This document shows positions 17,136-54,198 of a DNA stretch of 64,000 bases, piece by piece. Every line of letters begins with the position of its first letter. The stretch's first letter is position 1. The notes under the pieces were generated by a model that was given only the letters and a program-made list of their open reading frames with translations, did not search any database and was not told the origin of the DNA. Source of the DNA: Squalus acanthias. Its lineage: Eukaryota. A program made the position numbers and the translations under genes. The stretch covers positions 186,001 through 250,000 of the forward strand of contig JASTWF010000323.1 in assembly GCA_030390025.1 (NCBI GenBank), written 5' to 3'.

Positions 17136-17297
17136 CTCTCACCCTTTATAATTCTCTCTCTGTATGTCTCTCTTTCTCACTTGATCTATTTCGCTCTCTC
17201 TCTCTCTTCATCTCTCTCCCACTGTCCCTCTATATTTACTCCTCTGTCTGTGTCTCTCTCTCTCACTCTGTCTCGTTCGCTCTCACTCTCACTCTCA
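17135..17297. repeat. (CT)n-like low-complexity tract
   Basis: Interrupted tctctc runs. Confidence 0.85.
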
Positions 17298-21229: not shown

Positions 21230-21761
21230 AAAAACATTTGCATAACCATAATTCAGCGAGGTCGGCTTGGCTTTAAGCAGCGCTTATTCCCCTCTGGTTT
21301 CTCATTGGTTCCAGCGCCCCCCAGCGCCTCACTCGAGCGTCTGTCAAAGAGAAATGACGCAATGACGCTGGTCGGGCAATGACTTTCTAACGTTTGTCGG
21401 GGAATGACGCAATAAGGCCAGACAGGAATTGAACAGCAAGGTGGCGCTCCGATTGGTCAAAGCGCGGCAGCGCCCCTCAGCCATTGTTTGACTCCGCTGA
21501 CCATCACAGTGCCGGCGGGTGGCGGGATCTCAGTGGAGCAGAGACGCGCTGACATTGGTCATGAATAGCAGCACCCATTTCCTTGTTTCGCTCACCTGTC
21601 CATCACGGTTCGGGTGCGCGGATGCCCCATTGGAACGTTGGCTCAGGGAGGCGCTTCACTCTGGGATAGCGGGTCACCCGAGCCCGTGACCGTGGAGAGG
21701 GGGCGGGGCCAGTGGAGCCATTCGGGGCGGCCATGTTGCCGGAGAAGTCTACGCGGTGAGG
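21230..21761 (+). promoter_or_regulatory. CpG-island-like promoter with a candidate first coding mini-exon (ATG 21733, donor GTGAGG 21756)
   Basis: Octamer ATTTGCAT 21236; reverse CCAAT boxes at ~21304, 21452, 21554 and 21629; TGACGCAAT at 21355 and 21405; GC box at 21700; YY1-like GGCGGCCATGTT at ~21726. Confidence 0.6.
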
Positions 21762-25967: not shown

Positions 25968-26091
25968 CCGCTGACAATCCCGGATCTCCCGGTTTATTTC
26001 CCTTTCTTGTTTTCAGCTCATCCGCTTCTTCACCGTGAATTTGCAGCGCGAGTTTCTTGCACGGGAGGTAGTCTTTCAGCATGTCTTGTAC
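25968..26091 (-). CDS. Exon of the D8C-stalk gene (phase 0 to 1): VQDMLKDYLPCKKLALQIHGEEADELKTRKGNKPGDPGLSA
   Basis: Acceptor ttctcgtccgttcccag, donor gtgagg; 124 nt, open, phase-compatible with the exon at 27170-27285. Confidence 0.75.
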
Positions 26092-26209
26092 CTGGGAACG
26101 GACGAGAATCGCAGGGTGAGGTACGATGGAGAGGGATCGCAGTTAAACCGCACCTTAATAGGGGCTCTCAGGAAACATCACCGAGTCCCTAACACGTGGG
26201 GAATATCCT

Positions 26210-26645
26210 ACCCTTAAGACCAGGGTAACCCCTCCCACTTCACACCAGGCGACTCCCCTCCCTTGAACATCAGGTGAAGCCCCTCCCTTTTACACCAGGG
26301 GAATCACCTCCCCTTAACTCCAGGGACATCCCCTCCACTTAACACCAGGGGAATCCCCTCCCCTTAACACCAGGGAACTACCCTCCCCTTAACACCAGGG
26401 GAATCCCCTCCCCTTAACACCACGGAACTCCCCTCCCCTTAACAACAGGAAATTCCCTCCCCTTAACACCAGGGAACTACCCTCCCCTTAACACCAGGGG
26501 AATCCCCTCCCCTTAACACCGCGGAAACTCCGCTCCCCTTAACAACAGGAAATCCCCTTATCTTAACACCAGGGGACTACTCTCCACTTAACACTAGGGG
26601 ACTCCCTCCCCCTTTAAGAACATAGGAAATCCGCTTCCCTTAACA
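26210..26645. repeat. 25-bp minisatellite (AACACCAGGGGAATCCCCTCCCCTT)
   Basis: Direct 25-bp periodicity; intronic. Confidence 0.9.
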
Positions 26646-26649
26646 CCAG

Positions 26650-27130
26650 TCCAACTGGAAATGATCAATCAATGCCAACTGGGGATGATTAATCAATTCC
26701 AACTGGTGTTGGTCAATCAATGTCAACTGGTGTTTGTCTATCACTGGCAACTGGGAATGATCAAGCAATTCCAACTGGTGTTCGTCAATCAATGTCAACT
26801 GGTGTTTGTCTATCACTGGCAACTGGGAATGATCAAGCAATTCCAACTGGTGTTGGTCTATCAATGACAACTGGTGCTGGTCAACAATGCCAACTAGGGA
26901 TTGTCAATCAAGGCCAACTGGATTTGTTTAATCAATAAGAACTGGTGTTGTTCAATCAGTGCCAACTGGGGATTGTCAATCAAGGGCAACTGGTGTTGAT
27001 CAATCAATGCCAACAGGTGTTGTTCAATCAATGCCAACTGGTGTTGATCAATCAATGCCAACTGGTGTTGATCAATCAATGCCAACTGGTGTTCTTCAAT
27101 CAATGCCAACTGGTGTTGGTCAATCAGTGC
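26650..27130. repeat. 24-bp minisatellite (CAACTGGTGTTGATCAATCAATGC)
   Basis: About 20 copies; intronic. Confidence 0.9.
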
Positions 27131-27169
27131 CGGCACACCCCGAAAATGAATGAAGAATAAATCCCTCAC

Positions 27170-27285
27170 CTGCCGGAGATAGGCTTCCTTTTCCGCGGGG
27201 GTGTCCAGTTTGTTTTTGCCGATGTACATCACTTGGACCTCGGCACTGACCTTCTCACACTCCTCATCCGACAATTTCAGCACCC
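27170..27285 (-). CDS. Exon (phase 1 to 0): (G)VLKLSDEECEKVSAEVQVMYIGKNKLDTPAEKEAYLRQ
   Basis: Acceptor cttgtcctctcaatgttccag, donor CAG|gtgagg; 116 nt, open. Confidence 0.8.
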
Positions 27286-27689
27286 CTGGAACATTGAGAG
27301 GACAAGTCTTCAGCCGCAACGCCCAAACCACTCCCCCCCCTTCCGTGTAACGTTAGAGCCACAAATACCAACCGGGTACAGGCATGGGGCAGAGAGGGGA
27401 GCAATCCAGGAGCGCCGGTCCAACCGAGGACATTCTGTTCTGGGAGCAGAACTAGGTAATGTGGGTCTGTGCGGACAATTCCAGGTTCAGTCGCTGCTTT
27501 CACAAAACCCCCTGACCCGACCACCACAATTACCCGCAGCAGCTCGAGAAGGCAACTCCACATTCACAGGGCACTGGGGAGGGGCAATGAATGGGGCCCC
27601 CACCCCTGCTCCTGACTCCTGAGAGCCAATAGATACACAGTATAGGGGAGGGGGAGGGGTTTCAAAGAAAGAATGAACAGGGTGCGGCC

Positions 27690-28065
27690 CTTATAAAGCT
27701 CTGATGGAGGGCTTTAAAATTCTGAAGCGGGTTCGATACGGTAGATGTAGAGAAGATGTTTCCATTTGTGCGACCGTCCAAAATTAGGGGCCATAAATAT
27801 AAGATAGTCACTAATAAATCCAAAAGGGAATTCAGGAGAAACTTCTTTTTCCAGAGAATGGTGAGAATGTGGAACTTGCTACGAAAGGGAGTGTTTGAGT
27901 TGAATTGCATAGATGCATTTAAGGGAAGCTAGATAAATACATGAGGGAGATAGGAATAGAAGGATATGTTGATGGGTTTAGATGATTAGAGGTGGGAGGA
28001 TTCTCGTGTGGAGTATAAACACTGGCATGGACCAGTTGGGACGAATGGTCTGTTCTATTCTATGT
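27690..28065 (+). mobile_element. CR1 LINE 3' end fragment
   Basis: gggccataaatataagatagtcactaataaatcc..gacgaatggtctgtt 3' UTR. Confidence 0.8.
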
Positions 28066-28243
28066 ATTTAATATTGGGAGAGACTTTTCCTGATAACTGG
28101 GACTGAGCAGTCAGATTATAAAGCAGGATATTTGGGAGGTTCAATAGCTGAATGTCCGAGGATGGTGATAGGGAATGAATTCTTCCGGAATTGGACCCTG
28201 GAATAGTCTGACTGGTTGTTTCCTACCAGAAGCCGACTGATAC

Positions 28244-28333
28244 CTGGCCTTGATTGTCCCTCCTCTGACAGTTTGCACTCAGCTTCTGATGTAGACGCTC
28301 CCTTTGATCCAGGACTTGTCGTCTTCCCCGAAT
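28244..28333 (-). CDS. Exon (90 nt, phase 1 to 1): (D)SGKTTSPGSKGASTSEAECKLSEEGQSRP
   Basis: Acceptor gatctttcattacag, donor CAG|gtatca, resembling the splice sites of the 96-nt exons. Confidence 0.75.
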
Positions 28334-28479
28334 CTGTAATGAAAGATCAGCCACATGGGAACTGGAGGAAAGAGAAAAAGACCTGGATCTTCCTGCTGGA
28401 TACGGGTCTCTCATAGCACCGGGCCGCGCATTGAACTGATGGGCACAGGGACAAGAGACAATTCAGGACTGAAGGAGCA

Positions 28480-29185
28480 ATAGACAGAGAGAGAAAGATA
28501 AATATATCGAGAGAGAGAGACAGACCGAGTGAGAATGAGTTATAGAGACAGAGAGAGAGAGAGAGAGCTGGAAAGAGAGAGAGAAAGAGTGAAGATGGTG
28601 ACAGAGAGCCAGAGAGAGAGAAAAAAAGAGGGAAATGAACGGAATGAGAGAGTAAGAGACACAGAGAGAGAGAGATAGAGAGTGAAAAAGTGAAATATAT
28701 GGAGAGATAGAGACTGGGGATAGAGAGAGAAAGAAAGACAGGGAGAGATATACAGAGAAAGAGTGAGAAAGAGGGAGACAGAATGCCACTGACACACAGA
28801 GAGAGACAGAGAATGTTGGAGTGAAAGAAAGACTGATAACGTAAGATAAAGTTGGGGAGAAAGGGAGACAGATTGAGAGATAGAGAGAAAAAGAGAGATA
28901 TGCAGAGAAAGAGGGAGACAGAGACAGACAGAAAAAGAAACAGAGAGGCAGACGAAGGGAGAGAGACAAAGAAATTGACAGAAAGAGAGAGAGAGAATGG
29001 GCTAGAGAGACAGAGACAAAGAAATAGAGACAGAGAGAGAGAGACAGAGAGTGTGAGAGAGAGAGAGAGATAGACTGAGGGTGACAGACAGAGAATGAGC
29101 AAGAGAGACAGAGAGAGAAAGAGAGGGAGTGAGAAAGAGACAGACAGAGGGAGAGACAGGAAGAGAGAGACAGCGAGAGAGAGTG
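28480..29185. repeat. Degenerate (GA)n/(GACA)n microsatellite
   Basis: Long purine-rich tract. Confidence 0.9.
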
Positions 29186-29589
29186 GTAGGGGAAAGTTAA
29201 CAACCTATTACCCATCCTGGCATGTGGAACATAGTGACAAGCACTCAATCATGGGATCCTTTCATTCTCTAATCTGTTTCCTGTTAACATAACGTGCCTT
29301 AACTATCACAACAAGGCTCTCGTGTGGCACTTTATCAAATGCCTTGTGAAAATCCATATGCACAAAATATAACATCTCAGTTCCAGAACCGTTATATCAA
29401 GAAAGTTTCCGGTAGAATTATTCCCTCAGATTGTGTCTGGGGACATTCATTTTGAAACTGTCCCTTCATAAAGTGCCGCTATCGCGGAGTTTTTGATGTG
29501 GGAATAATGGATCTTAGTTCAAGGTTTAGTCCAAGGCGAATATGTCTGCTCTGATTCCACGTGAGGTAAATCGCATTTCAATCAAAGTA

Positions 29590-30465
29590 CTGGGGCTCAT
29601 TTCTAGAGTAATTGAATTGGAAAGCAGGGAAGTTATGTAAAATTTATATAGAAACTTGGGTAAGCCCCACTTGGAGTACTCTGCACAGTTCTGGTCTCCA
29701 TATACCTTGGTTAAACCACACCTGGAGCATTGTCCTCTATTCTGGTCTCCATATACGTTGGTTATACCATACTTGGAGTAGAATGCACAGTTCTACTCTC
29801 CTTAAAGCTTGGTTAGAACAAACTTGGAGCAGTATGCATTGTTCCGGTCTCCATATACTTTGCTTACATCACACTTGGAGTAGGAGGCACAGTTCTACTC
29901 TCCATACACCTTCATTAGATCACACTTGGCGCACTGCGCATAGTTAAGGTCTCCATAATATAAAAAGGATATAGAGGCACTGGAGAAGATGCAAAAACAA
30001 GGCTTACAAGGATGATCCCAGAACTGGGAGGGTACAACTTTCAGGAATGAATGAAACGGCTGGGGCTTACATTCTCCAGACAAGAGAAGGCTGAGGGGTG
30101 ACACGATGGAGGTCTTTAAAATTATGAAGGGTTTGAGAGTTTAGACCTATTGAGGATGTTTCCACTTGTGGATGTATCCAAAATTAGGGGCCATAAATAT
30201 AAGATAGGCACTAATAGATCCTATAGGGATTTCAGGAGCAACTCCTTTATCCGGAGACTGGTGAGCATGTGGAACTAGCTACAAGGAGTAGTTGAGGCAA
30301 ATATCATGGATGCATTTAAGGTGAAGCTAGATAAACTCGTGAGGGTGAACGGTCTCGGAGGTTGTGCTGATAGGGTGAGATGAAGTAGGGTTGGAGGAGT
30401 CTTGTGTGAAGCATAAACACTAGCATGGATCAGGTGGGCCGAATGGCCTGTTTCTGTGCTGTGAA
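29590..30465 (+). mobile_element. CR1 3' fragment containing an internal 51-bp tandem amplification (29654-29960)
   Basis: The LVRPHLEYCAQFWSP-coding segment occurs 6 times, followed by the CR1 3' end gggccgaatggcctgtttct. Confidence 0.85.
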
Positions 30466-30778
30466 TTCAACGCCTCCAATTCAGTCACCTAGTTTCAGAA
30501 ACAAACCCTCCTGGTATCACAAGCTCCATCCGTACTGCCCCTTCCCCAATGGACACAGACTCCTCCACTGATTCTCTCAGTCCCATCCGGTTCTGTCTCA
30601 TTTCCTGACTGCCCAACCTGATTTGAAATGATAAATCCGAGGAAGCTTGGATAGAGTGCGGGGCAATCTATCCTCCGAGAAAGGTCTCATTCGAGACTGG
30701 GTAATGCGCAGGGACTGAGCATTTCAGGAGTCACATTGGGTGAAGTGTCAGTTTGAAGGAACCCCACCAGACTGATAC

Positions 30779-30868
30779 CTGAGGCTGTAGACCCCGCTGG
30801 GACAGAGGACGATTTCTCAGTAGATTTTTCAGATGTTTGTTCCTCGGGTTCCTGAGTCGGGATTGCCT
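30779..30868 (-). CDS. Stalk repeat exon 5, ancestral acceptor lost, probable cryptic AG 6 nt downstream: (E)AIPTQEPEEQTSEKSTEKSSSVPAGSTAS
   Basis: Homologous to the 96-nt exons; donor gtatca intact; the ancestral acceptor position reads attatga instead of attacag. Confidence 0.55.
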
Positions 30869-31708
30869 CTGGATTCATAATATAGAATGAGAAACATGAG
30901 AGAGAGAAGGAGTGGGGAACACCCGAACACATCATCAGGCTGATACAATTGTCCGGAGAATGCCAGACTCCAGACTTTAAATAAGCCATTGCCCTCCAAC
31001 TCCAGTCATCTGATCCACTACAGCCAACTCTTTATGTCACTATAACGTACTCCCCCTCGGTTACTACATCACACAATATTCAGTCACTACAGCCCACATA
31101 CTTGAGTCACTACATCCCACTCTACTCAGTCGCTGCATCCCACTCACCTCAGCTATTACATTCCACTTCCCTCATTCACAACATCCCACTCCCAAGATTC
31201 ATCACATCCCACTCTCCCAATCACTGCATCGCAGCTCCTCAGTCAGTACATCGCACACACCTTAATCAGTAAATCCAATACCCTCAGTCACTAATTTCTC
31301 TCCCTTCAGTCACTACATCCGAATCGCCTCAGTCACCTCATCTCACTCCCTTTAGTCACTAATTCCACGCCCTCAGTTACTGCATTGCACTCCACTAATC
31401 ATTATATCGCACTCGCCTGAGTCACTATATACCACTCTACTCAGTCATCACATCGCACTCTGCTCAGTCACTACACCACTCCCCTCAGACATTGCTACAC
31501 ACTGCCCTCAGACACTGCCTCCCACTCCCCGCAGTCACTGCATCCCAATCCCCTCAGTCTCCTCATCCCACTTCCCACAGTCCGCTCATCCCACAACCCT
31601 CCCTCATTTCATCCCACGCACCGCACTGAGAGACTGGATGAATCTGAGGATTCCAGCAGTTACATTGGGTGAACAGTCTGTGTAGAATGGAATCCACAAG
31701 GCAGATAC

Positions 31709-31804
31709 CTGAGGCTGCAGAGCCTGCTGAGACAGAAGATGTACGGTCAGCGGATTCGCGAGTCGATTGTTCCTCAGGATCCTGAGTTGGAGATGTCTCT
31801 GGAT
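31709..31804 (-). CDS. Stalk repeat exon 4 (96 nt, phase 1 to 1): (D)PETSPTQDPEEQSTRESADRTSSVSAGSAAS
   Basis: Acceptor tctctcttcctttattacag, donor gtatct; open. Confidence 0.85.
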
Positions 31805-32710
31805 CTGTAATAAAGGAAGAGAGACATGGTAGAGTGCAGAGTGGAGCAACAGAACAGGTCATCAGGCTGATACTAGAGCCCAGAAAATGTCAGACATCAG
31901 TCTTTATAAAACAGATAAACATCAAATCCAACTCCCCTCAGTTACTGCATCCCATAACTCTCAGTCAATTCATTGCACATCTTTCAGTTACTGCATCCCA
32001 CTCCCCTCAGTCACTGCAACCCACTCCCCTCAGTAATTGCCTCCCTTTCACCTCAGTCACTGCATCCCACTCCCCTCCATCACTGCATCCCAATACACCC
32101 GGTGACTGAATTCCACTCCCTGCAATCCCCTCAGCCCTCTCCACTCTGGCACTAAATACAACTAGCCTCATTCTCTTCTACCCACTACCTTCAGCCACCT
32201 CGTCCCTCTACATTCAGGCTCCCCATCCCACTCCCTTCAGCGTTCACATCCCACTCGCCTCAGACTCCTCATCTCACTCCCTTCACATCCCTCATCCCAC
32301 TACTCTCAGACTCCTCATTCCACGACTCTCAGTCGCCTCATTCCACTCCCCTCAGAATACACACTCCAACCCGTCCCACTCACCCCTCAGTCTGCTCATC
32401 TCATTCTCCTCAGGCTCCGCATCCCACTTCCCTTAGACACATCATCGCATTACACTAAGAATTCTCATCACAAACCCCTCAGTCTCCTGGTCCCGCACAC
32501 CTCAGTTGCAGCATCCCACTCCCCTCAATCACTACATCCAACTCCGCTTGGGCTCCTCATCCTAATTCCCACAGTCCGCTCATCTCACACCCCTCCTTCA
32601 TTACATCCCACTCCCCTCAATAAGATACTGGATGAATCTGAGGGACTGAGGATGTCAACAGTTAGATTGAGTGAAAAGTCTGTGTAGAATGGACGCCACA
32701 AGGGAGATAC

Positions 32711-32806
32711 CTGAGGTTGCAGACCCTGCTGGGAGAGAAGATGAATGTTCAGCGGATTCTCGAGTGGATTGTTCCTCGGGTTCCTGAGTTGGGGATGTCT
32801 CTGTAT
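32711..32806 (-). CDS. Stalk repeat exon 3 (96 nt): (D)TETSPTQEPEEQSTRESAEHSSSLPAGSATS
   Basis: Acceptor tctttctttattacag, donor gtatct; open. Confidence 0.85.
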
Positions 32807-33275
32807 CTGTAATAAAGAAAGAGACACATGGGAGGGTGCAGTTTCGACAACACCCGAATAGGTCATCAGTCTGGTACTTGGAGAATGCCCGACACCAGTC
32901 TTTATAAAAGAATCATCCAATCCCATTCCCCTTAGTCATTACATCACACTCCCCTCATTCACGACATACCACTCCACTCATTCACTATATGACACTCCCC
33001 TCATTCACTACATCACACTCCACTCATTCACTTCCTTCAACTCCCCTTATTCAGTACACCACACTCTCCTCAATCACTGCATCCCACTCGCTCAGTCAGT
33101 GCATTCAACTATTCTCAGTCGCTGCATCCGAATCCCCTCAGTCTCCTCATCTCACACATGTCAGACAGTAAATCCCACATCACACAGTAAGAGATTGGAT
33201 CAATCTGTGCAACTGAGGATTGCTGCATACTCATTGGGTGAGCAGTCTGTAGAATGGACGCCACAAGGTAGATAC

Positions 33276-33371
33276 CTGAGGCTGTAGTCACCACTGGAAT
33301 AGTGGATGTATGGTCAGCGGATTTGTAAGTCGATTGTTCCGCGGGTTCCTGAGTTGGGGATGTGTCTGGAT
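33276..33371 (-). CDS. Stalk repeat exon 2 (96 nt): (D)PDTSPTQEPAEQSTYKSADHTSTIPVVTTAS
   Basis: Acceptor tctcttcctttctatcag, donor gtatct; open. Confidence 0.85.
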
Positions 33372-33532
33372 CTGATAGAAAGGAAGAGAGACATAGGAGG
33401 GTTCAGAGTGGAGAACAGGCCATCAGGCTGGTACTAGAGTCCGGAGAATTCCCGACATCAGTCTTTATATAGCCCAGAATCATCTAATCCCACTCCCCTA
33501 AATCACTAAATTCCACGTCCCTCAGTCACTGC

Positions 33533-33932
33533 TTTTTTTTATACGTTCCTGGTATGTGGGCGTCGCTGGCAAGGCCAGCATTTATTGCCGAACCCTAACT
33601 GCCCTTCAGAAGATGGTGGTGAGCTGCCTTCTTCAATACAACTGTATGATTTGCTAGGCCATTTCAGAGCGCAGTTAGGAGTCAAATAAATGGGTCTGGA
33701 GCCACATATAGTCCAGACCGGGTAAGGACGGCAGATTTCCTTCCCTAAAGGACATTAGTGAACCGGATTTTTTTTTAATGACAATCTGATAATTTAATGG
33801 ACTAGCTTATAATTCCAGATATTTATTAAATTCCAAAACTGTTGTGGTTGGATTTGATCTCATATTTTCCAGATCATTAGTCCAGGCCTCGGGATTATTA
33901 CTGCAGTAACATAACCACTGTGTTACCGTTAC
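33533..33932 (-). mobile_element. tRNA-derived SINE whose 3' tail matches the LINE at 43478-46072
   Basis: Minus-strand head acacagtggttatgttactg..gagatcaaatccaaccac; tail aataaatgctggccttgccagcgacgcccaca followed by poly(A). Confidence 0.75.
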
Positions 33933-34141
33933 CCCGCATCCAAATCCCCTCAATCCCCTCATCCAACACACGTCAGTCACTGCATCCCGATGCCCTCATT
34001 AAGAGACTGGATGATTCTCTGAAAATGCGATTTCAGAACTTACATTCGGACATTTTATTACTTTAAAATCTCTATATAAATACAAGTTATTGTTGTTGTT
34101 GCTGAACAGTCTGTGTAGAATGGATCCCACAAGGCAGTTAC

Positions 34142-34237
34142 CTGAGCTTGCAGACCATGCTGGTCTAGAGGAGAAACGGTTAGCAGGTTCACGAGTCGAC
34201 TGTTCCTCGGGTTCCTGATTTGGGAATGTCTTGGGAT
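34142..34237 (-). CDS. Stalk repeat exon 1 (96 nt): (D)PKTFPNQEPEEQSTREPANRFSSRPAWSASS
   Basis: Acceptor cctctgttcctatattacag, donor gtaact; open. Confidence 0.85.
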
Positions 34238-34859
34238 CTGTAATATAGGAACAGAGGCATGGGAGAGTGCAGAGTGGGGAACACCAGAACAGGTCATCAG
34301 GCTGGTATTAGAGTCTGGTGAATGTCAGACACCAGTCTTTATAAAACGCAGAATCATCAAATCCCATTCCCCATGACCCAGAAAGCCTGTAGATGGATCG
34401 TGCGGTGTTCAGCACTACACTGGGGGTCTATCGCGATCAGTGGGCACCGCAGGGAACAGAGTGTCAGATAGACTCGGAGAAAAGCGTTTGATTCAGCTCC
34501 CTATAGCTTTGAGGAAAAGTACAATTTGTGTTTCAGTTCCTTTATTCGTTGTGCCCCTTTCAACAATGCGGGGTGCTACATAATTTTGTTTTTCTGTTGA
34601 TGACACGGGACATCCCAGAGTCACCCTTCTGGATCATTTCAAAACGGACGTGTTTGCTCGCAACACCCAAAGCACTAATTGGTCCCCTTGGATGACGAGC
34701 CTGATTGCTGATTGGTCCAATTGGAGGACAAGACTGCCTACTGCAGACAGAACAGAGCGCACCTGCAACAGACAGGACTCACCCTCGTGGGTTAAGACCT
34801 TCTCCCACCCGCAAACATGTTCCTGCTCCCACAGCCCAAATTACTGATCAACTAACGCC

Positions 34860-37800
34860 ACCCAAGTTCCTGACCTCCCTCCAACCAAGTTCCTGACATT
34901 CTCCGCCGGTGCAATTTCTTGACCTCCGCCCATCAAAGTTACTGACCTCCACCCCCAGCGCGAGTTCCTGACCTTATCCCCCGGTACGATTCCTGAACTT
35001 CTCTGCAGCCCCGCCCCACCCCCCCCCCCCCGAGTTACTGCCCCCCGCGAGTTGCTGACCTTCTGTCCCACACCCAGTTCCTGACCTTCTCGAACCCCCG
35101 AGTTCCGAAATTCTCTCTCCCCCAAACCAAGTTCCTGAGCTTCTCTCCCCCTCCCAATTTCCTGCACATCACTCCCCCAATTCCTGACCTTCTCACCCTC
35201 CTCCTACCCGCGTCCCTGACCATCACTCCCACGCGAGGTCCTGACGTATTCTCCCCCACCGAGTTCCTGACCTTCTCTCCCACCTGAGTTCCTGAACTTC
35301 TCATCCCCCCCGAGTTCCTGAGCCTATATCCGTCCCACCCCAGTTCCTGACCTTCTCTATCACCCCCCCCCCCCGAGTTCCTGACCTTGTTCCTCCACCT
35401 GATTTACGGACCTTCTCTCCCCCCACCCCGAGTTCCTGACCTTATCGCCCTCCCACCCGAGTTCCTGACCTTCTCTCCCCTCCCCCCGAGTTCATGACCT
35501 TCTCCCCTTCCCCTGATTTTCGGACCTACTCTCCCCCCACCCCGAGTTCCTGATCTTTTCTCTCCCCACCCCGAGCTACTGACCTTATCGCCCTCCACAC
35601 GAGTTCCTCAGCTTCTCTTTCCGCCCGAGTTCCTGATCTTCTCCCCCAATTGATATTCCGACCATATCTCCCACCACCCCGAGTTCCTGACCTTCTCTCC
35701 AACCAGCTCGAGTTCCTGACCTTCTCACATCCTCACCCGAATTCCTGACCTTTCCCCCCCCAACCCGAGTTCCTGACCATCTCACCTCCTCACCCGAATT
35801 CCTGACCTTCTCCATTCCCCGAGTTCCTTACCTTCTCACTCCACCCCAACAACCCCAGGTCCTGACCTCCTCTCCCGCCGCCCCTGAGATCTTTATCTTC
35901 TCGCCCCGCGGCTTCCTGACCTTCACTCACCATCCCTGATTTCCTGACTTTCTCTCTCCTCCCTCCCACCTCTTGAGATCCTGACGTTCAATCAGATTCT
36001 CCACCACCGCGGAATTCCTGACTTTCTATTAAAAACCACAAACCACGCAACACCTCGAGTTCCTGAAATTGTCTCTTCAATCCTCACCCCCATTCGGGTT
36101 CCTGAACTGTATTCACTCCCCAAAGTTCCTGACATTCTCTCCCCGTTCCCCGGAGATCCTTACGTTCTACCCTACCCGAGTTCATGACCGTCTCATCCAC
36201 TCGCCCGAGTTCCTGATCTTCACTCCCCAACATCACCCCCACAAGTTCCTGATTTTCTCTGCACCTCCACGATTTCCTGACCTTCTCTCAGCCCACCCTA
36301 ATTCCTGACTTTCTCTCTCTCACCACACCCAAGAATTCCTGACCTTCTCTCCCTCCTCCGAGTTCCTGACGTTATTCCCCCTCACGAGTTGCTGACCTTC
36401 TCAACCCCACCCCCGAGTTCCTGACATTCTCAACCCCCAAGTTATTGACCTTCTCGCCCAACCTTCCGAGTCCCTGTCGTTATTGCCCCCTCCCGAGTCG
36501 CTGACCTTCTCAACCCCCAAATTCCTGACCTTCTCTCCAAAACCCGATTTAATTACCTTCTCTCCCCTCCCCCTGAATTACTGATCATCTCTCCCATGCC
36601 CCCTCCACCGAGTTCCTGTCCTTCTCACGCCCGTGGTATCTGACTTTCTCCCACCCAGCGAGTTCCTGACATTCTCTCTCTCCCCCCAGATTCCTGATCT
36701 TCTCTTCCCCTCCGAGTTCCTAACCTTCTCCTTCTCCCCCCAAGTTCCTGACATTCCCGCTCACCTCCGAGTTCCTGTCCTTCTCTCTCCCCCACCCCGA
36801 GTTTCTTTCCTTCTCTCTCCACCCACCCCCACCCCCCGAATTCCTGTCCTTCTCTAACACCCACCCCCCGTGTTCCTGTCCTCGCGCTCCCCCCGAGTTC
36901 CTGTCGTTCTCTCCCCCCCCCGAGATCCTGTACTTCTCTCTGCCCCCCCAGACTTCCTGTCCTTCTCTCTCTCCCTCCCCCCGAGATCCTGTCATTCTCT
37001 CTTCACCCCCGAGTTCCTGTCCTTCATTCGCCCCCCCCCCCCATCAGTTCCTGTCCTTCTCTCTCCCCCACCCGAGTTCCTGTCCTTCTCTCTCCCCCGC
37101 ACCAGCGAGTTCCGGTCCTTCTATCTCCCCACCCCCGTGTTACTGTCCTTCTCTCTCCCACCCCCCGAGTTCCTGTCCTTCACTCTCCCCCCCACCCTCC
37201 GAGTTCATGTCCTTCTCTCTCCCCACCACCCCCCCCCCCGGGTTCCTGTCATTCTCTCTTCCCCCCCGAGTTCCTGTCCTTCTCTCGACCCCCCCACTTC
37301 CTGTCCTTCTCTCCCCCATCCCCGAGTTCCTGTCCTTCTCGCTCCCCCCGAGTTCCTGTCCATCTCTGCCCCCCCCGAGATCCTGTCCTTCTCTCTACCA
37401 CCCCCCGAGTTCCTATACTTCTCTCTCCCACCCCCCGAGTTCCTGTCCTTCTCTCTCCCCCCTCCGAGTTGCTGACCTTCTCTCCCACTCCGAGTTCCTG
37501 TCCTTCTCTCTCCCTCCTCCGAGTTCCTGACCTTCTCTCCCCTCTTCGAGTTCCTGTTCTTCTCTCTCCACCCACCGAGTTCCTGTCCTACTCTCTCCCC
37601 CCACCGAGTTCCTGTCTTTCTCTCTCCCCACCCCGAGTTCCTGTCATTCTCTCTCCCACCCACCCGAGTTCCTGTCCTTTCTCTCCCCCCTCCGAGATCC
37701 TGCCCTTCTCTCTACCCCTCCGAGTTCCTGTCCTTCTCTCCCCCCCCCGAGTTCCTGTCCTTCCTTCTCCCCCTTCTCCGAGTTCCTGTCGTTCTCTCTC

Positions 37801-38330
37801 CCGCACCCTGCACGATTTCCTGTCCTTCTCTCTCTCCCCCTCACCGAGTTACTGTCCTTCTCTCCCCCCCACGAGTTCCTTTCCTTCTCTCTCGCCCCTC
37901 CGAGTTCCTGTCCTTCTCTCTCCCACCCTCTGAGTTCCTGTCCTTCTCTCTCGCCCCCTCCGAGTTCCTGTCCTTTTCTCTGCCCCCCCCCGAGTTCCTG
38001 TCCTTCTCTCTCCCCCCGAGTCCCTGACCTTCTCTCCCGCCCCCGAGTTCCTGTCCTTCTCGCCCCCCCCTGAGTTCCTGTCCTTCTCTCTCCCCCCTCC
38101 GAGTTCCTGTCCTTCTCTCTCTCCCGCCCCCGAGCACCTGACCTTCTCTCTCTCCCGCCCCCGAGTACCTGTCCTTTTCTCTCCCCTCCGAGTTCCTGAC
38201 CTTTTCTCTCCACGTCCCGCGTTCCTGACCTTCTCTCCAACCCCCGAGTTCATGACCTTCACTCCCTCCCCGCGAGTTCCTGACCTTATCTCCGCCCCCA
38301 CCCCTGAGTTCCTGATCTTTGCCCCCCCTA
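34860..38330. repeat. ~27-30-bp pyrimidine-rich satellite (CCCGAGTTCCTG[A/T]CCTTCTCTCCCC), intronic
   Basis: More than 100 copies of the gagttcctg core. Confidence 0.95.
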
Positions 38331-38341
38331 CCCCAATGTAC

Positions 38342-38505
38342 CTGTACAATAAGCCATGTTACACCTGTATGCCGGCTTCAACTCATAAACAAAGTAAGTG
38401 GTGCAGTTTTTGATCTTTATCTTCACGGTCGCTTCACAGTGATTTCCAGCCCCGGTAAAACAAACTTTCCTCTCCACTTCTCCATCTCCCACGGTGGGAT
38501 GAGAC
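38342..38505 (-). CDS. D8C module 2, exon C: HPTVGDGEVERKVCFTGAGNHCEATVKIKIKNCTTYFVYELKPAYRCNMAYCT (apparent 1-nt deletion at the exon start)
   Basis: Aligns to the UMOD/GP2 D8C C-half (HP..G.V.R..C..C..VK.C..YYVY.L..C..AYCT); 164 nt versus 165 nt in the paralogous exon. Confidence 0.85.
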
Positions 38506-38598
38506 CTGAAACGAGGTTTGTAAATATTGAAGAATGTAAGCGAGGTGAACAGTGCTGGACAGTGAATGTAAATCTGAGATTATAAAGTCTGAAATTAC

Positions 38599-38675
38599 CG
38601 TTTAACCAGCCCGAGAGGTGTGTGGAGCAGTGAAGGTGTGTAACCTGAGTCTCGGGAATCTCCCATCCACCAGAA
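38599..38675 (-). CDS. D8C module 2, exon B (77 nt, phase 2 to 1): SGGWEIPETQVTHLHCSTHLSGWLN
   Basis: Acceptor ttgttcttccag, donor gtaatt; matches UMOD GG.RM.ET....RC.T..P.WLNG. Confidence 0.88.
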
Positions 38676-38969
38676 CTGGAAGAACAATTAAAGAGTCAGC
38701 CCTGAACTGATGACTCATAATAACTGACAGAAAGAAAAGGAACTGATTGGTCAGTAAAGATCACACCGTATTTCTGGTCTTCAAGTTAGGGGCTGGGGTG
38801 AAATAGTTGCTTCGGGTTAAAGCTGGATCTTGGAGTTTAGTATTAATACTATATTAATTTAGTAACAGTTAATACTGTATTAAATTATTAACTGTTAATT
38901 AGATATGATATTACTAATTTTAATTAGGTACCCCTTAGTCTAAAGTTTATGTAAAGTTAGTTAATAGTC

Positions 38970-41900
38970 CAATAAATGGAGGCATGGCAGGGCTGCTCAG
39001 TCCCATGGAATGCACTTCCTGCGCCATGTGCGGATTTCCAGGACGCTTCCCGTGTCCTGGACAACCACGTGTGCAACAGATGTTGTCAGCTGGAGGAGCT
39101 CGAGCTCCGGGTTTCGGAGCTTGAGCAGCCGCTGGCGTCAGTGCGGTGCATCCGCCAGGCTGAGAGCTACGTGGATAGCACGTTTCTGGAATTGGTCACC
39201 ACGCTGCTAAGGAGTGAACAGGCAGAGTAGGAATGCGTGACCCACAGACGGAAGAGGAGTTCCAGGCAGTTAGTGCAGGAGTCCCCTGAGTGCTTACCTG
39301 TTCTGAGTACAGGAGAGGACAATGGTTCCTCTGGGGAGTACAGCCAGGTCAATTCCATGTCACCACAGGTATCTCAGCTGTACAGGGGTGGGATCAGGAA
39401 GATAGGGAAAGCAATAGTGGCAGGGGCTTCGAGTTAGGGGATCAGACAGGCGTTTCTGCGACCGCAGAATTTACTCCAGGATGTTATGTCGTCTCCCTGG
39501 TTCCAGGGTTAAGGATGTCACTGAGTGGCTGCAGAACATTCTGAGGGGGGGAAGCTGAACAGCCCGAGGTCGTGGTCCATATCGCTACTGACAACATATG
39601 TAGAAGGAGGGATGAGGTCCTGCAGCACATTTTAGGGATCGAGGAAATAAATTAAAAAGCAGGACCGCAAAGGTTGTAATCTCTGGAATACTACCGGTGG
39701 CACACGCGAGTGAGTATAGCAATTGAGGGATAGAGGAGATGAATGCGTGGCTGGAGGAATGGTGCAGTAGGGAGGGCTTCAGATTCCTGGGGCATTGCGG
39801 CCTGTTCTGGGGAAGGTGAGACCCTGTACAGGCCGGCAGGTTACACCTCAACAGAGGCGGTACAAATATGCTCGCGGGGATGTTTGCTCGTGCTGTTGGA
39901 GAGGGTTTAAACTAGGTTGGCAGTGTGATGGGCCCCGGATGTAGCATTAGTAAGGAGAAACAAAGGGCACAAATGATTGCGAGAGATGGATAGAGCTAAA
40001 GTAAGAAACAGTAAGATATTAGGTGGTGTCAGACTAAAAGAGAACACAGGATGGTCTACGACAGGTTTACAGTGTATGTATGTGAACGCACGAAGCATAG
40101 TAAACAATGTTGGTGAGCTGCAGGCGCAAATAGCCACATGGGAGCATGATGTTTTGGCAACAAAGGATACCTAGCTCAAACAAGTGCAGGATTGGGTATT
40201 AAATAGTTCTAGTTGTAAGTAGTTCAGGAAAGATATGGAAGGAAAGATATGAGGTAGTGAAGGAGAATTTTACAGTGCTGGAGAGAAAGGATGTCCTGGA
40301 GGTTTCAAGGACAGAATCTATATAGATTGAGATAAGAAATAATAGTGTATTCTATCGGCCACCAAATATTGGCAAAAATATGGTGGAGCCAATTTTGCAG
40401 AGAAATTACAGTGAGATGCAAGAACTATGGAGTAGTGATAATGGGGGACTTCAACAATCCTAATATAGACTGGGATAGTAATATTGTAAAGGGCAGAGAG
40501 GGGGAAGAATTTCTGAAGTGTGTTCAGGGGAACTTTCATGATCAGTATCTTCTTGCCAAAAGAGGAAGGAGGCAATGCTGGTTCTGGTTCTGGGGAATGA
40601 GGTCGGTCAAGTGGAGTAAGTGCCACTGGGTAAATATTTAGGGAACAGTGATCATAGTATCATAATGCGGAGATGCGGGTGTTGGACTGGAGTGGACAAA
40701 AGTGAGAAGTCGCACAACAAGGTCCCTCTGATCCTCTGTCCTTCCTAGGGTCCTACCATTCATTGTGTTTTCCCTTGCCTTGTTAGTCCACCCTAAATGC
40801 ATCACCTCACATTTTTCAGGTTATATTCCATGTGTCACCGTTCTGCACATCTGACCAACCCGTCTATATTGTCCTGTAGCCTGAAGCATCCCTCCCCGCT
40901 ATTTACCACTGCACCAATTTTCGTGTCATCTGCGAACGTACTGATCATACCTCCTACATTCATATCTAAATCATTAATGTACACTACAAACAGCAATGGG
41001 CCCATCACCGATCCCTGCGGTACGCCACTGGAAACAGGCTTCCAGTCACAAAAACAACCTTCGAACATCACCCTCTGCCTCCTGCCACTAAGCCAAATTT
41101 GGATCCAATGTGCCAAATTGCCCTGAATGCCATTAGAGTCCAAAAAGGAGAACTTCGCATGGAGGTAGAGGGCATGGTTCAGGTGAGAAATGAGCACTTT
41201 GCAGCTGTCTTCACCAAGGAATAACATGCTGCCATAGACATAGTGAAGGATGAGTTAAAGGAAATACAGGATGGGATAAAAATTGATAAAGAGACGGTAC
41301 TAGAAAGGCTGGCGGTACTTAATGTAGGTAAGTCACCAGGACCAGATGGGATGCATCCTAGGACGCTGAGGGGAGTGAAGGAAGAAATCACAGAGGTTCA
41401 GGCCGTAATCTTCCAATACTCGTTCGAAACGGGGTTGGTGCCAGAGGACTGGAGAATTGAAAAAGTTACTACCTTGTACAAAAAAGTGAGTAAAGATAAA
41501 TTCAGCAACTGCAAGCCAATCTGCTTAAACTCGGTATTGGGGAAGCATTTAGAAATAATAATCAGGATCAAAATTAACAGTCACTTGGACAAGTGTGGAT
41601 TAATTTAGGAAGGCCAGCACGGATCTTTTCAAGGCAAATCGTGTTCAACTATCATTGATCATTTTTTGATGAGGTAACAGAGAGGGTTGATGAGGGCAAT
41701 GCGGTTGACGTGGTGTACCTGGATTTTCAAAAGGCATTCGACATAGTGCCACGTCATAGTGTTGCCAGCAAAGCTGAAGCCCATAGGATAAAAGGGACAA
41801 TAGCAGCATGGACACAACATTGGCTAAGTGACAGGAATCAGAGAGTAGTGGTGAACGGTTGTTTGTCGGACTGAAGGAAGGCATACAGTGGTGTTTCCCA

Positions 41901-42866
41901 GGGTCGGTTCTAGGACCACTATTTTTCTAGATATATATTAACGAATTGGATGTGCGTGTACAGGGCCCAATTTCAAAATTTGCACATGATACAATACTTG
42001 GAATTATAGTGAACAGTGAAGAGGATAGTGATGGACTTCAAGAGGACAGAGACAGGCTGGTGGAATGGGCGGACATTTGCAGATTAAATTTATTGCAGAA
42101 AACTGCGAAGTGATACATTTTGGTCGAAAAGAAGAGCAGAGGAATTATAACCTAAAGGGTACAAACCTAAAGGGAGAACAACGGATACATGTGCTTAAAT
42201 CGTTTAACTTGGCAGGACAGATTGAAAAAGCTTACGGAATATTTTGCTTTTTAAATAGAGGTATAGAGTATAAAGCATGGAAATTATTTCGAACTTGTAT
42301 AATACACTCGTTCGGCCTCAAATGGAGTATTGTGTCCAATTCAGGGCACTGTACTCGATGAAATTTGTGAATACCTTAGCGAGGTGCAGAAAAGATTTAA
42401 GAGAATGTTTCCAGGGATGAGGGACTTCAGTTACGTGGATTGACTGGAGAAACAGGCGTTGTTCTCCTTAGAGCAGAAAAGATTGAGAGGAGATTTGAAA
42501 AAGGCGTTGAAAATGAGGAGAGGTCTGCACAGAGTAGACAGAGAGAAACGGTACCCATTGGCAGCAGGGTTGAGAACAAGAGGACACAAATTTAAGGTGA
42601 TTGGCAAAAGAACCAAAGGCGACAAAGGAAAAAAATACTCAGCGAGTTGTTAGGATCTGGAATGCATTGCCTGAAACTTTGGTGAAGGCAGACTCAATCA
42701 CATCTTTCAGAAGGGAGTTGGATGAGCACCTGAAAGAAAATAAATGCAGGGCTACGGGGAAAGGGCAGGAGATTGGGATTAACTGAAGTGCTCTTGCAGA
42801 GAACCGGTATTGTCTCGACGGGCCGAAAATCCTTCTTCCGTGCTGTAACAATTCTATGATTCTATG
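38970..42866 (+). mobile_element. Near full-length decayed CR1 LINE (ORF1 zinc finger + esterase, ORF2), interrupted at ~40666-41133 by an inverted CR1 fragment
   Basis: CxxC motifs, SGNH esterase-like ORF1, APE and RT motifs; 3' end ttctatgattctatga. Confidence 0.9.
40720..41133 (-). mobile_element. Inverted CR1 RT fragment nested in the CR1
   Basis: Peptide SGVPQGSVMGPLLFVVYINDLD..FADDTK. Confidence 0.9.
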
Positions 42867-42899
42867 AAAGACTGGGACCCGCAGAGAGTATTGTAAACT

Positions 42900-43120
42900 G
42901 GGGTCCATCCTTTACTCTCTGTTCTCGATCTATATTCCTCTCTATTCCGAATAACTCCCTTTACTTCTGTTCTCGATCTATATTTCCCTCTATTCCGGGT
43001 ATCTCCCTTTACTCTCTGTCCCCGTGCTATAACCCCCTCTATCCTAGGTATCCCCTTTACTCTCTGTCCCCGTTCTATATCCCTCTCTAACCTGGGATTC
43101 TCCCTTTACACACTGTTTCT
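42900..43120. repeat. ~49-bp minisatellite (ccctttactctctgtccccgttctatattcctctctatcccgggtatct)
   Basis: 4-5 copies; a longer paralogous array lies at 53340-53880. Confidence 0.8.
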
Positions 43121-43291
43121 CTATAGAGACCGGTTGTTCAAATTTCGCTATATCCACTCCCTGTCCAATTGCTCTGAATGATTATCTCTGTCTCCCTGCA
43201 GTAAGCATTCCTACTCGCAACCTTTATTCGCTTTTGTACATTTACTCCTCGCTTATCGACTAGTTTATCATTAAATTTCCACTCACATTAC

Positions 43292-43430
43292 CTTTTAAAT
43301 CTGTACCATCCGTAGGCAACATCCCAATCACATTTCTTTTGTTTATAGCACTGAGTCCCACTACAGTCCGTGCTCCTCCAGGGCTGGTTCAGGACTGTGT
43401 GATGTTCACACGGCTCAGTGAGTGCGGAGT
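43292..43430 (-). CDS. D8C module 2, exon A (139 nt, phase 1 to 2): (D)SALTEPCEHHTVLNQPWRSTDCSGTQCYKQKKCDWDVAYGWYRFK
   Basis: Acceptor ctttctgtcactcagtcccag, donor AAG|gtaatg; matches UMOD DPC..H..L...WRST.....CD....GWYRF. Confidence 0.9.
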
Positions 43431-43477
43431 CTGGGACTGAGTGACAGAAAGATTTTTAATGTTAATATAAAATAATA

Positions 43478-46072
43478 AGAAAGAAACCGGACGGACCACC
43501 CGGCATCGACATCGGCACCGGCTACGGACATGGCACGCCCAGCCCAATCTACCCTGCAAAGTCCTCCTCACCAACATCTGGGGATTGTGCCAAAATTGGG
43601 AGAGCTGTCCCACAGACTAGTCAAACAACAGCCTGACATAGTCATACTCACAGAATCATACATTTCAGTAAATGTCCCAAACTCCTCCATCACCATCCTC
43701 AGTTATGTCATGTCCCAGCAGCAGGGCAGACCCACCAGGAGTGGCCGCACCGTGGTATACAGTCGGAAAGGAGTGGGCTTGGGGGTCCTCAACATTGACT
43801 CCGGACCCCATGAAGTCTCATGGCTTCAGGTCAAGCATGGGGAAGGAAACCTTCTGCTGATTACTACCTACCTCCCTGATGAATCTGTATTCCACCTTGT
43901 TGCACACCACTTGAAGAAGCACTAAAAATAGCAAGGACACATAATGTACTCTGGGTGGGAGACTTCAATGTCCAACACCAAGAATGGCTCAGTAGCACCA
44001 CTATTGACCGAGCTGGCCACGTCCTGAAGGACATAACTGCCAGTCTGGGCCTACGACAGGTGGTGAGAGAACCAACACAAGGGAAAAACCTACTTGATCC
44101 CGTCCTCACCAATCTACCTGTCACAGATGCAACTGTACATGACAGTATTGGTAGCAGTGACAACTGCACAGTCATTGTGGAGACGAAGTCCCGTCTTCAC
44201 ACTGAGGACACCCTCCCTCCTGTTGTGTGGCACTGCCACTGTGCTAAATGGGATAGATTCAGAACAGATCTAGCAGCTCGAAAATGGGCATCCATGAGGC
44301 GCTGTGGGACATCAGCAGAACTGAATTCAAACCCAATCTGTAACCTCATGGACCGGCATATCCCTCACTCTACCATTACCATCAAGCCAGGGGACCAACC
44401 CTGGTTCAATAAGGAGTGTAGAAGAGCATGCCAGGAGCAGGACGAGGCACATCTAAAAATGAGGTGCCAAACTGGGGAAGCTGCAACACAGGACTCTATG
44501 CATGCTAAAAGGATCAAGCAACATGCTACAGACAGGGGTAAGAGATCCCACAATTAACGGATCAGATCAATGCTCTGCAGTCCTGCCACATCCTGTCGTG
44601 AATGGTGGTGGACCATTAAACAACTAACGGGAGGAGGAGGCTTCTTGAATATCCTCATCCTTAATGATGGTGGAGCCCAGCACGTGAGTGCAAAAGAAAA
44701 GACTGAAGCGTTTTCAACCATGTTCAGCCAGAAGTGCCGAGTTGCTGATCCATATCGGCCTCCTCCTGAGGTCCCCAAAATCACAGAACCCAGCTTTCAG
44801 CCAATTCGATTCACTTCACGTGATATCATGAAACGGCTCAGCGCCTTGGATACATCAAAAGCTATGGGCCCTGACAACATTGCGGCTATCATGCTGAAGA
44901 CATGTGCTCCAGAACAAGCCGCGCCTCTAGACAAGCTGCTCCAGTACAGCTACAACACTGGCATCTATCCGATAATGTGAAAAACTGCCCAGGAATGCCC
45001 TGTCCTCAAAAAGCAGGGCAAATCTAAACCGGCCAATTACTGCCCCATCAGTCTTCTCTCAATCATCAGCAAAGTGATGGAAGGTGTCACCGTCAGTGCT
45101 ATTAGCGGCACTTACTCAACAGGAACCTGCTCACTGATGCCCAGTTTGGGTTTCGCCAAGACCACTCTGCTCCACACATCATTACAGTCTTTTTCCGAAC
45201 ATGGACAAAGGAGCTGATTTCCAGACGTGAAGTGAGAGTGACAGCCCTAGACTTCAAGGCAGCATTTGACCGAGTGTGGCATGAAGGAGCCATAGTAAAA
45301 CTGAGGTCAATGGGAATCGGGGGAAAAACTCTCCACTGGCTGGAGTCTTACCCAGCACAAAGGAAAATGGTTGTGGTGATAGAAGGTCAATTATCACAGC
45401 ACTAGACAAAGCCGTTCGCCAGAAACGTCACTGGGCCAGACACATAAATACTGTGGAAACAAGAGCAGGTCAGAGGCTAGGTATTCTGTGGCGAGTGTCT
45501 AACCTCCTGACTCCCCAAAGCCTTTCTACCATCTACAAGGCAAAAGTAAGGAGTGTGATGGAATACTCTCCACTTGCCTGGATGAGTGCAACACAAACAA
45601 CACTCAAGAAGCTTGAAATCATGCAGGACAAAGCAGCCCGCTTGATTGCCACCCCATCCACCACCTCAAAGATTCACTCCCTCCACCACCGGCGCACCGT
45701 GGATGCAGTGTGTACTATCTACAAGATGCACTGAAGCAACTCGCCAAGGCTTCTTCTGCAGCACCTCACACACCCGCGACCTCTTCCACCTAGAAGGACA
45801 AGGGCAGCAGGCGCATGGGAACACCACCACCTCCAAGTTCCTCTCCAAGTCACACACCATCCTAACTTAGAAGTATATCGCCAATCCTTCATCGTCGCTG
45901 GGTCAAAATCCTAGAACTCCATACCTAACTGCACTGTGGGAGTATATTCACCACACGGACTGCAGCGTTTCAAGAAGGCGGATCACCACCACCTTCTCGG
46001 GGGCAATCAGGGATCGGCAATAAATGCTGGCCTTGCCAGCGACGCCCACATCACACAAACGAATAAAAAAAT
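43478..46072 (+). mobile_element. Non-LTR retrotransposon (APE + RT, CR1/jockey group, distinct from the HER1-like CR1s), decayed, with an internal deletion in RT
   Basis: Peptides PDIVILTES, GDFN..H.EW, GPDNI and ALDFKAAFDRVWH; 3' AATAAA and poly(A); absent from the paralogous duplication copy. Confidence 0.88.
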
Positions 46073-46605
46073 AAAGATCAGTTAATATTACACAGCGGCT
46101 TGTAACACCCGAAGCAGCAATAACCTCAGTCTCACTCTCCGCCCTGGTAGAAAATCACCCAAATTAAAGCTGGAAACTTGTCAACTTCTGTAAGCCAGGT
46201 TTCAATCTGTCTCCCAGCCCAGCCTTTAGCTCACTGCTCACAGACAGTCCTCCCTATTCTAGATTGACCCTTAGCTCTCAGGTAACAGAAAGCAGCAGTA
46301 ACTTCAGCTTCACTTCGTCCAATAGAAAAGCTGCAAATTTAAAGCTGGAATTTAGCGAGTCTCTAAATAGGCTTTAATCTACGTCACTGAAATTTGGTTT
46401 CCGTTTTACTTCTATTAACACAGAGATTCGGGAAGTTCAACTTACTCTCACCCATTCTCTCCCTCCTCACAGACTGATCTCTCTGTTCTACATTAACTGT
46501 TATGTCCAGCTACAGAACGCCGTGTGCCCGAGTAAGTTTCAAGCTGCAGTTCCCGCGGGAACCTCCAACATTTGGGACCCTCCTCCTGCATCTGCAGACT
46601 GAGCT

Positions 46606-46895
46606 GGTGAACAGAGTGCAGATGGTGAGGGACACTCAATGGTCAGTGAGAGATATCCTGAGGTTTCTCTGTCCCCAGGAGAACACTGAGTGCAGATGGT
46701 GAGGGGCACTCGATGGTCAGTGAGTGATATCATGGGGTATCTCAGTCCCCAGGTAAACAGAGTAGAGATGGTGAGGGACACTCGAAGGTCAGTGAGAGAT
46801 ATCCTGAGGTTTCTCAGTCCCCAGGTAAACAGAGTAGAGATGGTGAGGGACACTCGAAGGTCAGTGAAAGATGTCATGGGATATCTCAGTCCTGG
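46606..46895. repeat. 72-74-bp minisatellite, 4 copies (3 copies at 54776-54997)
   Basis: Unit gatggtgagggacactcgatggtcagtgagagatatc..gtcccca. Confidence 0.9.
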
Positions 46896-47089
46896 GGTGA
46901 AATTAGATTAAAATAACTGTATTTTGCTGATTCTCCATTTAGAAAATTATAAAATTATATATGTATAGATATTGAATATATTAATGCTGAATATATAATA
47001 AATTGGAAGATGAATATCAAAGATATTTTAATAATATATTATAAAAATTGCAAGATATATATTCTGATTGAAATACTGAATATATGAAT

Positions 47090-48670: not shown

Positions 48671-48678
48671 CCATGTAC

Positions 48679-48843
48679 CTGTGCAATAAGCCATGTTATA
48701 CCCGGGTGCCGGCTTCAACTCATAAACGAAGTAACTGCTGCAGTTTTTGATCTTTATCTCCCGGTTCCTGTGACAGGGATTTACAAACCCGGTAAAACAA
48801 ACTGTCCTCTCCACTTCTCCCTGTCCAACGGTGGGATGTGCAC
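48679..48843 (-). CDS. D8C module 1, exon C (165 nt, phase 1 to 1): AHPTVGQGEVERTVCFTGFVNPCHRNREIKIKNCSSYFVYELKPAPGYNMAYCT
   Basis: Acceptor cctcgtttcag, donor CAG|gtacat; open; D8C C-half. Confidence 0.9.
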
Positions 48844-48936: not shown

Positions 48937-49013
48937 CCTTTAACCAGCCTGGGCGGCCTGTGGAGCAGCGACGGACTGAAACCGGAGTCTCTGGAATCTC
49001 CCATCCACCAGAA
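48937..49013 (-). CDS. D8C module 1, exon B (77 nt): SGGWEIPETPVSVRRCSTGRPGWLK
   Basis: Acceptor ttgttgttccag, donor gtaatt; open. Confidence 0.9.
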
Positions 49014-53303: not shown

Positions 53304-53339
53304 AAAGATTGGGAACCACATAGAGTACCGGAAACCGGG

Positions 53340-54053: not shown

Positions 54054-54198
54054 CTTTTAAATCTGTACCATCCTTGAACAAGATCGTTATCACACTTCGA
54101 GTCCCACCCATCGATGCACTGAGTCTCAATGCAGTCCGTGCTCCTCCAGGTGTCCTCCAGGACTGTGTGATGTTCACACGGGTCCGTGAGTGCGGAGT
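54054..54198 (-). CDS. D8C module 1, exon A (145 nt, phase 1 to 2): (D)SALTDPCEHHTVLEDTWRSTDCIETQCIDGWDSKCDNDLVQGWYRFK
   Basis: Acceptor ttttgtcactcagtcgcag, donor AAG|gtaacg; open; DPC..WRST..CD.DL..GWYRF signature. Confidence 0.9.

Follow-up and report, generated by a model that had tools for sequence, protein, structure and literature searches.

Five tandem symmetric exons as a probable linker in a D8C-domain gene of Squalus acanthias

Structure of the locus

The locus described here lies in a 64,000-nucleotide (nt) stretch of the Squalus acanthias genome (assembly GCA_030390025.1, contig JASTWF010000323.1, positions 186,001 to 250,000), hereafter called the window, and all coordinates refer to this stretch. 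Its central feature is an array of five tandem copies of one 96-nt exon with phase 1-1 boundaries, which we call cassettes k1 to k5 and which homology and splice sites assign to the minus strand (Table 1). The cassettes follow two D8C domains and precede a small C-terminal domain, and an older relative of the cassette, exon s6, lies between k5 and the exons for the C-terminal domain.

A DNA profile that combines the exon with its flanks recovers exactly k1-k5 over the 64-kilobase (kb) window at E values of 1e-73 to 1e-80, and a sixth, weaker match at 28373-28235 (E 0.002) corresponds to s6. A sequence-only reading of this DNA had described five tandem phase 1-1 exons spaced at ~0.6-1 kb, with homologous intron flanks and with frames that all lack stops. 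The spacing is borne out by start-to-start distances of 866, 565, 1002 and 930 nt from k1 to k5 (a range of 565-1002 nt), and the homology of the flanks by mean pairwise identities among the five copies of 78% over 110 nt upstream and 68% over 70 nt downstream, compared with 76% in the exons. The exons are indeed five homologous units, but for k5, whose full-length homologous copy (30874-30779, minus strand) also measures 96 nt, the description has to be amended, as this copy has lost its ancestral acceptor AG and is spliced as 90 nt.

Differences in spacing are largely accounted for by blocks of a 23-bp minisatellite and by one interspersed repeat. At 33554-33768, between k1 and k2, lies a highly repeated interspersed element, where all four sequencing runs have loose ends and a very high depth. 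The five copies form a star-like tree in which support is weak (0.70, 0.003), and therefore no order of duplication can be assigned. A search of Rfam over 26000-39000 returned 0 matches.

None of the five copies contains a stop in the phase-1 frame, an outcome that had a probability of 0.086 in a simulation of neutral substitution. The cassette exons also contain no insertions or deletions, as compared with 6 events, 5 of them frame-shifting, in ~140 flank columns counted by eye. A rough Poisson estimate for this contrast is ~0.03, and jointly with the stop-free simulation ~0.003. The open frames noted in the sequence-only reading are thus kept beyond chance, though modestly.

Two duplicated three-exon units, a1-b1-c1 (54198-48679) and a2-b2-c2 (43430-38342), are located 5' of the cassettes, and each encodes a uromodulin/GP2-type D8C module. 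They are part of a segmental duplication of ~10 kb (38322-47299 and 48659-55433), the matching blocks of which are 79-84% identical while the repeat insertions differ. The curated cut-off for PF23283, against which the scores in Table 1 are to be read, is 27 bits. An exon-like segment with a CAG acceptor is duplicated as well, 5' of each D8C unit, at 54761-54710 and ~46590-46540 on the minus strand. The segment and the cassette peptide have similar ends, one copy of the segment carries a stop, and the cassette profile does not match the segment.

Table 1. Features of the D8C-linker gene in the window
Feature	Position	Strand	Evidence or remark
D8C/beta-hairpin exon a1	54054..54198	-	
D8C exon b1	48937..49013	-	
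D8C exon c1, 165 nt	48679..48843	-	PF23283 E 6e-5, 23.7 bits, under the curated cut-off as a fragment
D8C/beta-hairpin exon a2	43292..43430	-	
D8C exon b2	38599..38675	-	
D8C exon c2, 164 nt	38342..38505	-	Pfam PF23283 E 3e-7, 30.9 bits
Cassette exon k1, 96 nt, phase 1-1	34142..34237	-	0 differences to X14 record 23
Cassette exon k2, 96 nt, phase 1-1	33276..33371	-	inside DNA contig X3 record 29
Cassette exon k3, 96 nt, phase 1-1	32711..32806	-	sequence anatomy
Cassette exon k4, 96 nt, phase 1-1	31709..31804	-	X14 record 20, 3 differences/96, joined to k5
Cassette exon k5 as spliced, 90 nt	30779..30868	-	X14 record 20, 0 differences/90; 840-nt GT..AG intron removed
Exon s6, 90 nt, phase 1-1, older cassette relative	28244..28333	-	nhmmer E 0.002
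Exon t1, first half of small C-terminal domain	27170..27285	-	68% identity to white shark P0074 over 41 amino acids, E 6e-14; X14 record 17
Exon t2, terminal coding exon to stop, 85 amino acids	25834..26091	-	first 26 amino acids match P0074, E 5e-4
Diverged 23-bp minisatellite blocks, introns between cassettes	31063..33110	.	

The C-terminal domain is encoded by t1 and t2. A Pfam scan of t1, t2 and s6 assigned no family, and no EGF, ZP or glycosylphosphatidylinositol (GPI) part was found; 18 C-terminal stretches of relatives likewise yielded no consistent family, the best E value being 0.0017 in one member. One weak match, to an unnamed Atlas cluster, was obtained at 0.79, and a likeness to SEA-type domains is possible. 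Relatives end ~25-30 amino acids into the exon equivalent to t2, as compared with the 85 amino acids of t2 in the window, and this added length could possibly stem from loss of a stop or from an unused donor.

Use of the cassettes in transcripts

Reads were mapped over 27140-34850 and included two probable RNA runs, X13 and X14, both assigned as RNA by guess only. Cassettes k1-k4 are bounded by an AG acceptor and a GT donor, while the acceptor site of k5 reads TGA where k1-k4 have CAG. Because the ancestral AG before 30874 has mutated to GA, the acceptor of k5 has shifted by 6 nt to an in-frame downstream AG. Use of this AG is seen in record 20 of run X14, a contig in which k4 (31709-31804, 3 differences) runs straight into 30868-30779 (0 differences). 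As such, k5 is a clear small case of frame-keeping splice-site turnover and shows how arrays stay open while drifting. For the remaining 38 letters of record 20 there is no mapped piece among those listed, and the depth of this record, 5.62, recurs at 28305 and matches the bin depth for 38 letters in s6. From this depth we infer that k5 is spliced to s6.

Two further contigs from X14 bear on the gene. Record 23 contains k1 with 0 differences and ends 5 letters into the intron, with an overhang that fits the end of c2 and not that of c1 or b2. Record 17 contains part of t1 and stops matching no more than 5 nt from the t1 boundary. Direct support from spliced contigs extends to three of the five cassettes. 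The cassettes are real exons that are spliced, and their presence in transcripts is supported by the joint between k4 and k5. For the other two, neither X13 nor X14 covers k2 in bin 33074-33331, and cover of k3 is low with no listed piece, which at a contig depth of 3-6 and in a filtered table is uninformative. Additionally, DNA contigs from two samples span k1, k2 and k5 together with their flanks, while DNA depth over the cassettes is not of a kind from which copy number can be derived.

Composition and constraint of the linker

The cassette peptides contain 35% Ser+Thr, 12% Pro and ~20% Asp+Glu, with no Cys and no N-glycosylation sequon. From composition only, the linker is predicted to be O-glycosylated. 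Within the cassette, codons 1-14 exhibit a pN of 0.14 and a pS of 0.28, while codons 15-31 exhibit a pN of 0.32 and a pS of 0.28 (permutation p 0.0035, with the split between codons 14 and 15 chosen after inspection of the data). The first 14 codons thus appear to be constrained with the rest drifting. Column conservation over 46 homologous units is partly circular as a measure, since these units were found with a profile made from the window copies.

Relatives in sharks and rays

Protein searches returned 8 and then 152 matches, and the best among the 120 listed all belong to sharks and rays and have no Pfam family other than PF23283. A profile of the cassette peptide was matched by 41 of 122 elasmobranch proteins (isoforms counted, seven shark genera), each with 1-5 units, and by none of 20 other or unnamed proteins and no locally shuffled control, such that the number of detectable units per elasmobranch D8C-family protein ranges from 0 to 5. 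The linker exon array would therefore be a trait of the whole elasmobranch family and not unique to the window gene, as judged by these protein comparisons. In relative P0007, a match to the GP2 decoy module 7p6r has an E value of 2e-23. Family members carry automatic names in RefSeq and UniRef that include "uromodulin-like", "GP2-like", "OIT3-like" and "mucin-5AC-like". Examples are XP_041038052-59 and XP_041038349-50 from white shark, XP_067834703-4 from Heptranchias and XP_060678496-7 from Hemiscyllium.

Isoforms that lack a whole Ser/Thr/Pro-rich unit of 27-35 amino acids occur in 8 of 19 isoform groups, drawn from 7 species; the groups were formed on locus name or on neighbouring accessions, within clusters picked for having several members. 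For example, gene models of the white shark locus LOC121274779 have 4, 3 or 2 units. A difference of another kind is seen between the Mustelus LOC144488233 isoforms (P0140, P0024), which differ in their C-terminus: X1 has short repeated units followed by a t1/t2-type domain and X2 ends otherwise.

Discussion

We propose that a 96-nt phase 1-1 exon, present in five tandem copies, encodes a likely O-glycosylated, extended linker that runs from the D8C pair to the C-terminal domain of a likely secreted protein, and that some transcripts likely omit individual copies. To this proposal as a whole we assign a probability of about 0.62. The symmetric linker exon would have been multiplied by unequal crossing-over, aided by the homologous flanks and the intronic minisatellite, and its symmetry would allow copies to be gained, lost or skipped without a frameshift. 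Linker length would consequently vary first between genes and species and second, probably, between transcripts, and tuning of length by splicing is plausible. The protein itself likely acts as a mucosal microbe-binding decoy in which the linker spaces out the D8C heads, by analogy with GP2, uromodulin and the zebrafish omcins as portrayed in excerpts of the literature cited below.

A number of observations weigh against this proposal, and several of them lend themselves to other explanations. No skipping junction at the window locus is present among the joints and records listed, which number 15 out of 337 and 31 out of more than 73,000, respectively, and the sole cassette-cassette junction seen, k4-k5, is an inclusion junction that may itself stem from an allele or a paralogue, its k4 part having 3 differences. 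The splice sites of the cassettes are not weaker than those of other exons of the gene, and 11 of the 19 isoform groups show no skipping of linker units. The isoforms of relatives are moreover automatic gene models, and near-identical units can produce false skips in such models. If all cassettes were always included, then length would vary only by copy number in the DNA and the skips in the databases would be noise or mis-mapping. Such a constitutive spacer agrees with the inclusion junction, with splice sites as strong as those of other exons, with the groups that lack skipping and with the wide differences in unit number between genes. We nevertheless consider it rather unlikely, given that the skipping isoforms described above include white shark units that are visibly diverged, for which mis-mapping is less likely. 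The sequence-only claim that these symmetric exons can be skipped freely is supported by automatic models of relatives that drop whole units, but not by a listed joint at the locus itself.

Other contrary observations concern the integrity of the gene. In the assembly c2 lacks one base relative to its duplicate c1 (164 versus 165 nt), which creates a frameshift ahead of the cassettes, and a2-b2-c2-k1 as assembled reaches a stop at residue 100. The pooled cassettes have a pN of 0.24 versus a pS of 0.28, which is near neutral. Relatives begin with a hydrophobic leader (by eye), and nothing consistent with a signal-peptide exon was found in the 64-kb window, although such an exon may sit beyond base 64000. 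One may also view the gene as a decaying paralogue in a birth-and-death family that is transcribed and spliced, with translation being stopped by the c2 deletion before the cassettes and with the open frames a leftover. The mutated acceptor of k5, the long t2, the overall pN/pS near 1 and the overhang of record 23, which fits a c2-type exon joined to k1, are all in keeping with decay. We judge this explanation to be quite improbable, as all exons except c2 are open, the shift of the k5 acceptor keeps the frame and the first 14 cassette codons are constrained. The single missing base may be an assembly error or mark a broken allele, or it may be bypassed by skipping of c2, and a skip of exon c, which keeps the frame, is annotated in 2 of the 19 isoform groups of relatives. 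As the shifted k5 acceptor, the sixth relative s6 and the one-base-short c2 had all gone unrecognized, the array described in the sequence-only reading holds in outline but was incomplete.

That reading had also likened the cassettes, as a potentially tunable stalk, to the variable exons of CD44 and CD45. Taken literally, this analogy would place the array next to the membrane as a regulated stalk of a cell-surface receptor, as symmetric Ser/Thr/Pro-rich exons 3' of a ligand-binding-type domain and a hydrophobic C-terminal segment in one relative, P0091, might suggest. It finds no support at the C-terminus, however. No hydrophobic segment is present in s6-t1-t2, where the maximum Kyte-Doolittle value for a 19-mer is 0.83, only 2 of 112 tails of relatives exceed a hydrophobicity of 1.8 with one of these lying in a model stretch that matches repeat sequence of the window, and relatives that share the C-terminal domain end just after it. 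A membrane stalk is the least likely of these rivals, and we consider it very improbable. Because no transmembrane segment was found, the cassettes likely constitute a linker of a secreted elasmobranch protein and not a membrane stalk.

A last contrary observation involves function. GP2 and uromodulin form a decoy module that carries a FimH-binding glycan on the sequons GP2 N65 and UMOD N275, as described in an excerpt of the structural study (PMC8930769). Equivalents of both sequons are absent from both D8C copies of the window, which is why a FimH-type mechanism is disfavoured, and relatives retain an N65-type sequon at 76 of the 159 sites that match.

The gene nevertheless resembles this decoy module (PDB 7P6R) in its combination of a beta-hairpin with a D8C/D10C module. 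Zebrafish omcins, for their part, are encoded by a gene cluster, vary in how many D10C modules they contain and give protection against bacteria, according to the portion of the report drawn on here (PMC11415648). The window gene differs from uromodulin, GP2 and the omcins by a mucin-like exon array in place of EGF, ZP and GPI parts, and because none of these parts was found we would not classify it as uromodulin, GP2 or omcin proper. A closer likeness is to the D8C-linker models of sharks and rays, which share D8C domain(s), exon-sized Ser/Thr/Pro/Glu-rich units including the 32-amino-acid unit, and a small C-terminal domain, and which likewise lack ZP, almost never contain a transmembrane segment and are modelled with isoforms that lack units. 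The window gene departs from these models in its five recent units plus one old one, its shifted k5 acceptor, its frameshifted c2 and its long last exon.

CD44 and CD45 are transmembrane receptors whose symmetric, Ser/Thr-rich extracellular exons can be omitted like those of the window gene, which in turn has no transmembrane segment and exons that are recent tandem duplicates. Variable-exon splicing in CD44 and CD45 is regulated by signals, as stated in the part of the source used here (PMC4730250). DMBT1/SALSA is secreted and functions in defence; its heads are rich in cysteine, its spacers are short, disordered and glycosylated, and its length varies by copy number and alternative splicing, as set out in sections of a preprint (10.1101/709915). 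Its SRCR, CUB and ZP domains, as these sections present them, are unrelated to those of the window gene, and there the whole unit of domain plus spacer is repeated while in the window gene the spacer exon alone is repeated. By analogy, and as far as these excerpts go, the window gene would work most like DMBT1/SALSA and less like CD44/CD45.

Tandem symmetric exons as a glycosylated spacer of variable length are already well known from DMBT1, CD44 and CD45, and automatic gene models of the D8C-linker family already exist for many sharks and rays. No paper on this family was found in the open-licence literature, and it is large and seems to be undescribed in the literature that can be searched. 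What makes it of interest is that, in place of the ZP filament of uromodulin, GP2 and the omcins, it has a mucin-like exon array. It is a candidate family for mucosal defence in elasmobranchs. One can speculate further that a large family of ZP-less, uromodulin-type secreted microbe decoys is peculiar to sharks and rays. The conserved 32-residue exon module would be a functional unit of these decoys, with its first half acting as a site of binding or modification, and the number of modules would be set by both DNA copy number and regulated skipping. We regard this broader scenario as improbable, but if true then a module number controlled at two levels would tune reach and valency by tissue or infection, as a soluble counterpart of CD44/CD45 splicing.

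Other features of the window

The antisense of t2 (26017-26115, plus strand) contains a good acceptor, a donor and an open frame. A GC-rich, promoter-like region is located at 21.3-21.8 kb and includes an ATG exon with a GT donor at 21733-21755 on the plus strand. A convergent and overlapping gene is possible. Elsewhere in the window, a 27-bp satellite of ~326 copies occupies 352-9214, and its consensus carries AAGATGGCGG, which we take to be a YY1-type motif. It is followed at 9267-17136 by a second 27-bp satellite that is more uniform, with 87% matches.

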